Notes under the pieces: generated by a model | Database searches by the model: none | What the model saw: the letters and a program-made list of their open reading frames with translations, nothing else | What the model was told of the DNA's origin: nothing | Assembly: GCA_000146045.2 (NCBI GenBank) | Contig: BK006938.2 | Location: 1,088,001-1,152,000, forward strand | Length of the DNA: 64,000 bases | Direction of reading: 5' to 3' | Source: TPA_inf: Saccharomyces | Lineage: Eukaryota | Part shown: positions 7,370 to 13,892 of the stretch, one piece after another | How positions within the stretch are numbered: the stretch's first letter is position 1 | How the letters are laid out: each line of letters opens with the position of its first letter | Program-made: the position numbers and the translations under genes

Positions 7370-7461
7370 TGCGAACTCTGTGGATCGAACACAGGACCTC
7401 CAGATATCTTGACCAAAGTTTTTTCTTCAGTCTGGCGCTCTCCCAACTGAGCTAAGTCCGC
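7370..7461 (-). tRNA. tRNA-Phe(GAA) with intron
   Basis: The minus-strand sequence reads GCGGACTTAGCTCAGTTGGGAGAGCGCCAGACTGAAGA[intron ~19 nt]TCTGGAGGTCCTGTGTTCGATCCACAGAGTTCGCA. A box, B box (GTTCGATCC) and anticodon GAA are all present. A Pol III T-run terminator lies immediately downstream (plus 7355-7369). Confidence 0.93.
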
Positions 7462-7639
7462 TAACATAAGACGGAACTTCATGGGTGGTCTGTCTTTTAT
7501 ATATGCAATCTTTTATTTTTATTGCGTTGCGGTTTTCAGTATTCATAAGAAGGTGAAAAATGAAACAGATCGTTGTGATCAAATCGCTCAAATCGGATTT
7601 AAATTAAACTTTTTCTTCTATTTCAATGCATTTAATTAA

Positions 7640-7766
7640 GATAGGTAACTCTTGTGAATAAGTGTTGGGATTGCATTGGTGATAAATCCATAATTAGGTA
7701 CACAGAATATTCATGAAGTTTTTTTTGAGGATAAAAGAATCCCCAAAAAATGAGATTGGTAAATCT
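7640..7766 (-). repeat. Left half of an older diverged delta (Ty1/Ty2 LTR), split by the Ty1 insertion
   Basis: The sequence gtgttgggattgcattggtgataaatccataattaggtacacagaatattcatgaag...gaggataaaagaatcc...aatgagattggtaaatct aligns to the reverse complement of the delta U5 end (attgttgggattccattgttgataaaggctataatattaggtatacagaatatactagaag...gaggatataggaatcctcaaaatggaatct). Confidence 0.7.
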
Positions 7767-8104
7767 TGTTGGAATAAAAATCCACTATCGTCTATCAACT
7801 AATAGTTATATTATCAATATATTATCATATACGGTGTTAAGATGATGACATAAGTTATGAGAAGCTGTCATCGATGTTAGAGGAAGCTGAAACGCAAGGA
7901 TTGATAATGTAATAGGATCAATGAATATAAACATATAAAACGGAATGAGGAATAATCGTAATATTAGTATGTAGAAATATAGATTCCATTTTGAGGATTC
8001 CTATATCCTCGAGGAGAACTTCTAGTATATTCTGTATACCTAATATTATAGCCTTTATCAACAATGGAATCCCAACAATTATCTAATTACCCACATATAT
8101 CTCA
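7767..8104 (+). repeat. Ty1 5' LTR (delta)
   Basis: Starts TGTTGGAATA and ends ...ACCCACATATATCTCA. The TYA ATG (8064) lies inside the LTR, as is usual for Ty1. Confidence 0.95.
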
Positions 8105-9386
8105 TGGTAGCGCCTGTGCTTCGGTTACTTCTAAGGAAGTCCACACAAATCAAGATCCGTTAGACGTTTCAGCTTCCAAAATTCAAGAATATGATAAGGC
8201 TTCCACTAAGGCTAACTCTCAACAGACAACAACACCTGCTTCATCAGCTGTTCCAGAGAACCCCCATCATGCCTCTCCTCAACCTGCTTCAGTACCACCT
8301 CCACAGAATGGGCCGTACCCACAGCAGTGCATGATGACCCAAAACCAAGCCAATCCATCTGGTTGGTCATTTTACGGACACCCATCTATGATTCCGTATA
8401 CACCTTATCAAATGTCGCCTATGTACTTTCCACCTGGGCCACAATCACAGTTTCCGCAGTATCCATCATCAGTTGGAACGCCTCTGAGCACTCCATCACC
8501 TGAGTCAGGTAATACATTTACTGATTCATCCTCAGCGGACTCTGATATGACATCCACTAAAAAATATGTCAGACCACCACCAATGTTAACCTCACCTAAT
8601 GACTTTCCAAATTGGGTTAAAACATACATCAAATTTTTACAAAACTCGAATCTCGGTGGTATTATTCCGACAGTAAACGGAAAACCCGTACGTCAGATCA
8701 CTGATGATGAACTCACCTTCTTGTATAACACTTTTCAAATATTTGCTCCCTCTCAATTCCTACCTACCTGGGTCAAAGACATCCTATCCGTTGATTATAC
8801 GGATATCATGAAAATTCTTTCCAAAAGTATTGAAAAAATGCAATCTGATACCCAAGAGGCAAACGACATTGTGACCCTGGCAAATTTGCAATATAATGGC
8901 AGTACACCTGCAGATGCATTTGAAACAAAAGTCACAAACATTATCGACAGACTGAACAATAATGGCATTCATATCAATAACAAGGTCGCATGCCAATTAA
9001 TTATGAGAGGTCTATCTGGCGAATATAAATTTTTACGCTACACACGTCATCGACATCTAAATATGACAGTCGCTGAACTGTTCTTAGATATCCATGCTAT
9101 TTATGAAGAACAACAGGGATCGAGAAACAGCAAACCTAATTACAGGAGAAATCCGAGTGATGAGAAGAATGATTCTCGCAGCTATACGAATACAACCAAA
9201 CCCAAAGTTATAGCTCGGAATCCTCAAAAAACAAATAATTCGAAATCGAAAACAGCCAGGGCTCACAATGTATCCACATCTAATAACTCTCCCAGCACGG
9301 ACAACGATTCCATCAGTAAATCAACTACTGAACCGATTCAATTGAACAATAAGCACGACCTTCATCTTAGGCCAGAAACTTACTGA
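8064..9386 (+). CDS. TYA: Ty1 TYA (Gag), 440 aa
   Basis: ATG at 8064, stop at 9384-9386. Ty1-type Gag sequence. Confidence 0.95.
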
Positions 9387-12300: not shown

Positions 12301-13332
12301 TGCGTATTTAAGAATAGTCAAGTAACAATTTGCTTATTCGTTGATGATATGATATTGTTCAGCAAAGACTTAAATGCAAATAAGAAAATCATAACAACAC
12401 TCAAGAAACAATACGATACAAAGATAATAAATCTGGGTGAAAGTGATAACGAAATTCAGTACGACATACTTGGCTTAGAAATCAAATATCAAAGAGGTAA
12501 ATACATGAAATTAGGTATGGAAAACTCATTAACTGAGAAAATACCCAAATTAAACGTACCTTTGAATCCAAAAGGAAGAAAACTTAGCGCTCCAGGTCAA
12601 CCAGGTCTTTATATAGACCAGGATGAACTAGAAATAGATGAAGATGAATACAAAGAGAAGGTACATGAAATGCAAAAGTTGATTGGTCTAGCTTCATATG
12701 TTGGATATAAATTTAGATTTGACTTACTATACTACATCAACACACTTGCTCAACATATACTATTCCCCTCTAGGCAAGTTTTAGACATGACATATGAGTT
12801 AATACAATTCATGTGGGACACTAGAGATAAACAACTGATATGGCACAAAAACAAACCTACCGAGCCAGATAATAAACTAGTCGCAATAAGTGATGCTTCA
12901 TATGGTAACCAACCATATTACAAGTCACAAATTGGCAACATATATTTACTTAATGGAAAGGTAATTGGAGGAAAGTCCACCAAGGCTTCATTAACATGTA
13001 CTTCAACTACGGAAGCAGAAATACACGCGATAAGTGAATCTGTCCCATTATTAAATAACCTCAGTCACCTTGTGCAAGAACTTAACAAGAAACCAATTAC
13101 TAAAGGATTACTAACCGACAGTAAATCTACAATCAGTATAATTATATCCAATAATGAAGAGAAATTTAGAAACAGATTTTTTGGTACTAAAGCAATGAGA
13201 CTAAGAGATGAAGTATCAGGAAATCATCTGCACGTATGCTATATCGAAACCAAAAAGAATATTGCAGACGTAATGACCAAACCTCTTCCGATAAAAACAT
13301 TCAAACTATTAACAAACAAATGGATTCATTAG
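8064..13332 (+). CDS. TYB: Ty1 TYA-TYB (Gag-Pol) made by a programmed +1 ribosomal frameshift: 8064-9368 joined to 9370-13332
   Basis: The frameshift heptamer CTT AGG C sits at 9366-9372 (CTT is in the TYA frame, GGC at 9370 is in the TYB frame). Pol carries protease DSGAS, integrase HHCC plus D,D(35)E, reverse transcriptase FVDDM, and RNase H. There are no internal stops. Confidence 0.93.
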
Positions 13333-13354
13333 ATCTATTACATTATGGGTGGTA

Positions 13355-13692
13355 TGTTGGAATAAAAATCCACTATCGTCTATCAACTAATAGTTATATT
13401 ATCAATATATTATCATATACGGTGTTAAGATGATGACATAAGTTATGAGAAGCTGTCATCGATGTTAGAGGAAGCTGAAACGCAAGGATTGATAATGTAA
13501 TAGGATCAATGAATATAAACATATAAAACGGAATGAGGAATAATCGTAATATTAGTATGTAGAAATATAGATTCCATTTTGAGGATTCCTATATCCTCGA
13601 GGAGAACTTCTAGTATATTCTGTATACCTAATATTATAGCCTTTATCAACAATGGAATCCCAACAATTATCTAATTACCCACATATTTCTCA
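13355..13692 (+). repeat. Ty1 3' LTR (delta)
   Basis: By eye it is identical to the 5' LTR except for at least one mismatch near the U5 end (ATATATCTCA versus ATATTTCTCA). Confidence 0.95.
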
Positions 13693-13892
13693 AATCTCCT
13701 ATATTACGATCTATTCTTTAGTCTAAATGTTACCAATCGTTATCCTTTTTTATCATCAATCCGTGCGTTTCAGTTGCTTTTAAATTTGATAACGCATTCT
13801 TATCATTTATGTCATTTTATTACATCATATATGATAATATTCCGTCACCTTGAATACTCATCAAGAAACGATAAGTTGTTGTAATTTAACAG
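13693..13892 (-). repeat. Right half of the older diverged delta interrupted by Ty1
   Basis: The segment ...ttatcatcaatccgtgcgtttcagttgcttttaaatttgataacgcattcttatcatttatgtcattttattacatcatatatgataatattc aligns to the reverse complement of the delta interior (cattatcaatccttgcgtttcagcttcctctaacatcgatgacagcttctcataacttatgtcatcatcttaacaccgtatatgataatat). Together with 7640-7766 it makes about 325 bp, one LTR length. Confidence 0.65.

Follow-up and report, generated by a model that had tools for sequence, protein, structure and literature searches.

How does a full-length Ty1 come to lie between two pieces of an older, inverted delta, a few hundred base pairs upstream of a transfer RNA (tRNA) gene? 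We examined this question in a 64,000-bp stretch of Saccharomyces cerevisiae DNA (contig BK006938.2, positions 1,088,001 to 1,152,000 of the forward strand; hereafter the window, to which coordinates refer unless stated otherwise), in which such a Ty1 occupies positions 7767-13692 next to a tRNA-Phe(GAA) gene. The window is S288C-type chromosome IV, and the proteins flanking the Ty1 are those of the S288C genes OMS1 and HIM1, since exact-sequence look-ups returned Oms1p for the upstream open reading frame (ORF) and Him1p for the downstream ORF. We consider it nearly certain that two integrase-mediated insertions of Ty1-family elements took place upstream of this one gene, which RNA polymerase III (Pol III) transcribes, and that the second of them, the annotated element YDRWTy1-4, landed inside the remnant of the first and is still segregating. 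An initial annotation of the window had likewise proposed that one integration was followed by another into what was left of it, and both the natural empty alleles and the published record of nesting, described below, agree with that proposal.

Structure of the nested insertion

The nested structure is made up of the following parts, in which LTR stands for long terminal repeat.

7370-7461, minus strand: tRNA-Phe(GAA) gene, 92 bp, intron-containing (Rfam RF00005 at 56 bits; ARAGORN with introns allowed)
7637-7766, minus strand: left half of the old delta (3′ part of that LTR), 130 bp, including the AATCT at 7762-7766
7762-7766: left copy of the target-site duplication AATCT, directly before the 5′ LTR
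7767-8104, plus strand: 5′ LTR (delta) of the Ty1, 338 bp, TGTTGG...TCTCA
13355-13692, plus strand: 3′ LTR of the Ty1, 338 bp
13693-13697: right copy of the target-site duplication AATCT, directly after the 3′ LTR
13698-13891, minus strand: right half of the old delta (5′ part of that LTR), 194 bp

The Ty1 measures 5,926 bp, in keeping with the 5.9 kb first assigned to it, and is bounded by two direct deltas with TG...CA ends, which fall within the length of about 334-338 bp that defines such repeats. The initial annotation had described the two LTRs as essentially identical, with a single A/T difference; base-by-base comparison gave exactly this result, with identity at 337/338 positions and the sole mismatch at LTR position 333, where the 5′ LTR has A (8099) and the 3′ LTR has T (13687). 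The 5-bp duplication, also noted at the outset, is perfect on both sides of the element, and the AATCT is present as a single copy in the empty alleles of other strains.

The sequences on either side of the Ty1 had been taken for the halves of one diverged delta of about 325 bp in the opposite orientation. When 7767-13697 was excised in silico and the flanks were joined, the Ty1 LTR aligned on the minus strand straight across the junction and in register, with 73% identity over 266 columns in a local alignment (E 6e-40). The delta rebuilt from 7637-7766 and 13698-13891 is 324 bp long, has the termini TGTT...TCTTA and aligned globally with the Ty1 LTR from end to end, 234 of the 346 columns being identical (about 68%). 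Its end-to-end similarity to delta, together with termini of the TG...CA type, identify it as a solo LTR. The boundaries first given for the two halves (7640-7766 and 13693 to about 13892) lie within a few bases of those found here.

Alleles of the insertion in other strains

Nineteen loci from other assemblies, here given L numbers, were fetched by exact look-ups of Oms1p and Him1p. One of them (L004) was left out of allele scoring, as Ns of an assembly gap cover the site. Two short-read contigs, L018 and L019, end 979 bp and 527 bp upstream of HIM1, respectively, and carry a delta LTR at the site for which full-length and solo states are indistinguishable; L018 continues past the 3′ LTR for about 150 bp of Ty1 internal sequence, and L019 ends inside the 3′ LTR.

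In nine loci (L002, L003, L005-L010 and L017) the site is empty, i.e., the old delta is uninterrupted and contains one AATCT. The in-silico empty site, which spans 1,074 bp between OMS1 and HIM1, is 99.6-99.8% identical to the alleles of L002, L003, L005, L007 and L010 and 97.8% identical to that of L008; these alignments are continuous through the single AATCT, with no gap at the junction. The empty junction is likewise present in L006, L009 and L017. The excision that the initial annotation had suggested as a check is thus matched by natural alleles. As a separate observation, L017 (locus positions 8979-10000), which is empty and has the S288C-type HIM1 haplotype, carries a 53-bp deletion between the tRNA gene and the old delta (intergenic positions 320-372, window 7498-7550).

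A full-length Ty1 is present at the identical site in L001/L011, L012, L013, L015 and L016, and the single difference between its LTRs is the same in every one of these alleles. L001 and the window share an identical sequence of 17,178 bp. The L012 copy (YJM789, GCA_000181435.1; locus positions 2990-10000) has the same LTRs, duplication and flanks and differs internally at 85 positions, all within the window equivalent of 8586-11640 and including single-base insertions or deletions (indels) that break the ORFs. We rejected the idea that YJM789 carries a different element at the same site: since its LTRs, duplication and flanks do not differ, the insertion is one and the same. Either its internal differences were acquired from another Ty1 by gene conversion, or they are mistakes in an older draft assembly.

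The third allelic state was found in L014 (GCA_000976725.3; locus positions 8584-10000), where a solo LTR at intergenic positions 589-926 lies exactly where other strains have YDRWTy1-4 and is flanked by the same AATCT duplication. At position 333 this LTR has T, the allele of the 3′ LTR, as expected if the two LTRs of YDRWTy1-4 crossed over with each other, and it is the product of LTR-LTR recombination of this element. YDRWTy1-4 therefore segregates as three alleles, empty, full-length and solo LTR; a comparison of strains for the full-length element versus the solo delta had been suggested at the outset. All three states are found in the species, and the element is young and not private to one strain. 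The view that the copy is recent is supported by the single LTR difference and by the polymorphism of the insertion among strains.

Identity and published annotation

The element is the annotated YDRWTy1-4 (YDR316W-A / YDR316W-B; UniProt Ty1-DR5) of S. cerevisiae S288C chromosome IV. The Gag it encodes matches "Transposon Ty1-DR5 Gag polyprotein" exactly, as does its Gag-Pol fusion "Transposon Ty1-DR5 Gag-Pol polyprotein" (UniProt P0C2I2 / NP_058150.1). Between YDRWTy1-4 and the Ty1 of the window, proteins, neighbours, length, strand and coordinates are the same and there are no differences; sacCer2 1095765-1101690 corresponds to window 7767-13692 with a constant offset of 1,087,998.

The arrangement has been in the literature since 2012, when Carr, Bensasson and Bergman published a re-annotation of S288C made with a tool for rejoining nested insertions (PMC3511429). 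Their chrIV_i4+_TY1 is YDRWTy1-4, at 1095765-1101690 on the plus strand, listed as Full, Active, present in 6/25 strains, Polymorphic and "1-nested" (PMC3511429). The exact Ty1-DR5 protein identity, together with their TY1 active-clade label, shows that the interior is that of a Ty1 and not a Ty2. The same list contains chrIV_s83-_TY1, a solo LTR without an SGD name at 1095639-1101876 on the minus strand, which is Inactive and Fixed (27/27 strains) and is flagged as the host of a first-level nested insertion (PMC3511429). It consists of the same two minus-strand fragments on either side of YDRWTy1-4 as our old delta. Its RepeatMasker fragments (1095639-1095746 and 1101699-1101876, or window 7641-7748 and 13701-13878) are shorter than the delta described here, which runs up to the insertion point and has its termini at 7637 and 13891.

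The nested arrangement is therefore already annotated and published, and it is also common and ordinary. File S3 of Carr et al. holds 65 "1-nested" and 2 "2-nested" feature lines genome-wide, with cases of full-length elements in solo LTRs among the first-level lines, and their File S2 includes the comparable nestings of YBLWTy2-1 in YBLWdelta6 and of YBLWdelta2 in YBLWdelta1/3 (PMC3511429). YBLWTy2-1 in YBLWdelta6 resembles the present locus in that a young, polymorphic, active-clade element sits in an old, fixed, inactive solo delta; it differs in the inserted family, Ty2 instead of Ty1, and in lying on another chromosome. The initial annotation had called the nesting unusually clean, a description that we do not retain, because similar nestings are common throughout the genome. 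What our analysis adds to the published record is small: the solo-LTR allele at the site, and four further Ty insertions upstream of the tRNA gene that are described below.

Coding capacity and competence of the Ty1

Between the outer ends of its LTRs, the Ty1 has the following coding and cis-acting features.

8064-9386, plus strand: TYA (Gag), 440 aa, start codon within the 5′ LTR (Pfam TYA, E 1.8e-233)
8105-8114, plus strand: primer-binding site TGGTAGCGCC, abutting the 5′ LTR
9346-13332, plus strand: TYB frame, open
9366-9372, plus strand: CTTAGGC heptamer, the +1 ribosomal frameshift site from TYA to TYB
9370-13332, plus strand: TYB (Pol) past the frameshift, with protease, integrase, reverse transcriptase and RNase H (Pfam rve, RVT_2, Pol_BBD and SH3_retrovirus)
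13346-13354, plus strand: polypurine tract TGGGTGGTA, abutting the 3′ LTR

TYA and TYB had been reported as intact, and both frames are indeed open. They overlap by 38 nt, and translation across the +1 shift at CTTAGGC (CTT read, one base skipped) gives a Gag-Pol fusion of 1,755 aa without a stop. The order of its Pfam domains, TYA, Pol_BBD, rve, SH3 and RVT_2, is that of Ty1/copia (Pseudoviridae), with protease, integrase, reverse transcriptase and RNase H following one another as in Ty1. The motifs DSGAS of protease, HH-CC and D/D/E of integrase, FVDDM of reverse transcriptase and DASYG of RNase H are all intact. The primer-binding site lies next to the 5′ LTR and the polypurine tract next to the 3′ LTR, and an extra copy of TGGGTGGTA is found at 11552, within the integrase-coding region. 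In Ty1, the primer-binding site is complementary to the 3′ end of initiator tRNA-Met.

The integrase also retains its bipartite nuclear localization signal, KKR-29 aa-KKR with KNMRSL, at Gag-Pol residues 1178-1212. In Ty1 integrase, the residues that bind the Pol III subunit AC40 are K617-L622, within this bipartite signal (PMC7459421). KNMRSL matches these residues, so the targeting domain of this copy is in place. The initial annotation had judged the copy probably transposition-competent; from these intact sequence features, competence is plausible.

Alternative explanations

Within the window alone, the continuity of the flanks is only an alignment argument, and a delta at about 68% identity that has no target duplication of its own could also be read as unrelated remains of distinct earlier insertions that flank the Ty1 by chance. 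This explanation is refuted by the nine alleles that lack the Ty1, where the two halves are joined exactly at the AATCT, and the in-register course of the LTR alignment across the junction argues against it as well; the chance that it is correct is vanishingly small. Somewhat less remote, and still very improbable, is an origin of the full-length element by homologous recombination rather than by integration, in which Ty1 complementary DNA (cDNA) or a Ty1 from elsewhere in the genome would have recombined with a solo LTR that occupied the site beforehand. The L014 allele, with the same duplication, would be a substrate for such recombination, and gene conversion between Ty1 elements could yield a copy such as that of YJM789, with 85 internal differences between unchanged LTRs and flanks. 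However, the usual direction of change is from the full element to the solo LTR by LTR-LTR recombination, the T at position 333 of L014 is what a crossover between the LTRs of this element is expected to leave, and the YJM789 differences, ORF-breaking indels among them, may be draft-assembly errors. Under either reading, moreover, the founding event at the site is an integration with a 5-bp duplication.

The alternative to be taken most seriously, which we still think unlikely, is that the Ty1 is structurally intact yet dead, inactivated either by missense substitutions or by silencing of its promoter. In UniRef its Gag-Pol sequence occurs at this locus only (n=1) and so carries private substitutions. 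Against this stand the intactness of every catalytic, targeting and cis-acting motif tested, the active-clade placement by Carr et al. and the identity of its Gag to five other S. cerevisiae Ty1 entries (n=6). Nothing in the data examined contradicts the structural reading. The account has the following weak points. Missense changes could disable this Ty1, competence being something that cannot be read from sequence alone. The single LTR difference may stem from reverse transcription and not from later mutation, which makes it a poor clock. Finally, across the window and ten other strain loci the old delta has no recognisable target-site duplication of its own (TTAAT against GTAAC, 3/5); this is expected at such divergence, yet it is not positive evidence, and it is the reason why the integration of the old delta and its subsequent reduction to a solo LTR are inferred.

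Insertion upstream of the tRNA-Phe(GAA) gene

The tRNA-Phe(GAA) gene is transcribed leftwards, so that the Ty1 lies on its upstream side, and a T-run terminator, TTTTTATTTTTT, follows the gene on the minus strand. From a comparison with the known 73-nt body of yeast tRNA-Phe, we take its intron to be 19 nt long. The Ty1 is transcribed in the direction away from the tRNA gene. Measured upstream from the tRNA 5′ end (7461), the AATCT target pentamer is 301-305 bp away, which bears out the placement of the insertion in the Pol III targeting window upstream of tRNA-Phe(GAA), a range of about 1 kb on the upstream side of a gene that Pol III transcribes. Ty1 integration is directed to about the first kilobase upstream of Pol III genes through AC40, and K617-L622 of integrase are required for this (PMC7459421).

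The nested insertions have the following history, for which published work supplies the part played by AC40 and the derivation of the old delta as a solo LTR. A delta-bearing element would first have landed about 175 bp upstream of tRNA-Phe(GAA), pointing the opposite way from the present Ty1, and would have been cut down to a solo LTR through LTR-LTR recombination. The solo LTR became fixed in the species and decayed to its present identity of about 68% with active LTRs. Much later, an active-clade Ty1, presumably steered by binding of the integrase C-terminus to AC40, integrated into it 301-305 bp upstream of the tRNA gene; the 5-bp staggered cut made by integrase duplicated AATCT, and the old delta was split into its 130-bp and 194-bp pieces. 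Repeated hits in one window, combined with LTR-LTR recombination, in this way build up layered solo LTRs that become targets for later elements.

Other strains carry four more independent Ty insertion events (Ty1, Ty3 and Ty4) upstream of the same tRNA gene. L013 (GCA_947370585.1; locus positions 1-3285) has, besides the Ty1, a full Ty3, which lies on the minus strand; its sigma LTR comes to within about 10 bp of the tRNA 5′ end (window equivalent 7471), and one end only of this Ty3 was read, as the locus breaks off within it. Such a location, at the Pol III start site, is classic for Ty3. L006 (GCA_029990705.1; locus positions 11417-13486), which lacks the Ty1, contains a 371-bp LTR at the window equivalent of about 7575-7579, about 115 bp upstream of the tRNA gene. 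This is presumably a Ty4 tau-like LTR, a call that rests on recognition of its termini and its length and not on a database match. It is split by a delta that is 82% identical to the Ty1 LTR and has the duplication GTATT. Within the old delta of the same locus lies a solo delta in inverted orientation, at the window equivalent of about 7733-7737 with the duplication AAAAG, about 30 bp from the S288C insertion point. In L009 (GCA_000976335.2; locus positions 11417-12828), a solo delta 97% identical to the Ty1 LTR lies at the window equivalent of 13957-13961 with the duplication GTGTC, about 565 bp upstream of the tRNA gene in empty-site coordinates, and is an independent insertion.

As two independent lineages received insertions about 30 bp apart (the S288C Ty1 at 7762-7766 and the L006 delta at about 7733-7737), one may ask whether the decayed solo delta is itself a preferred landing pad, e.g., by nucleosome positioning. 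We find this doubtful; if true, old LTRs would reinforce the tRNA-proximal hotspot beyond what tethering to Pol III alone provides. The locus follows textbook Ty1 biology, in which elements integrate where Pol III directs them, nest in older LTRs and are lost to solo LTRs. Its empty, full-length and solo alleles, together with the four further insertions, make it a neat case for teaching about natural hotspots of integration and bring no new principle.

Other features of the window

With default settings, ARAGORN reported 0 tRNA genes across window positions 1-64000. This is a false negative, as two genes are present, both with introns, and tRNA-Phe(GAA) was missed because of its intron. The second, found by ARAGORN with introns allowed, is a tRNA-Ser(GCT) gene at 62842-62941 on the minus strand. 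About 100 bp upstream of it lies a solo delta (63039-63368, plus strand) that is 91% identical to the Ty1 LTR, followed by inverted delta fragments at 63368-63516 on the minus strand; these are chrIV_s84+ and chrIV_s85- in the list of Carr et al. (PMC3511429). Elsewhere in the window, a 181-aa ORF at 18336-18881 on the plus strand runs antisense within a long ORF at 18095-20347 and is probably a chance open frame.

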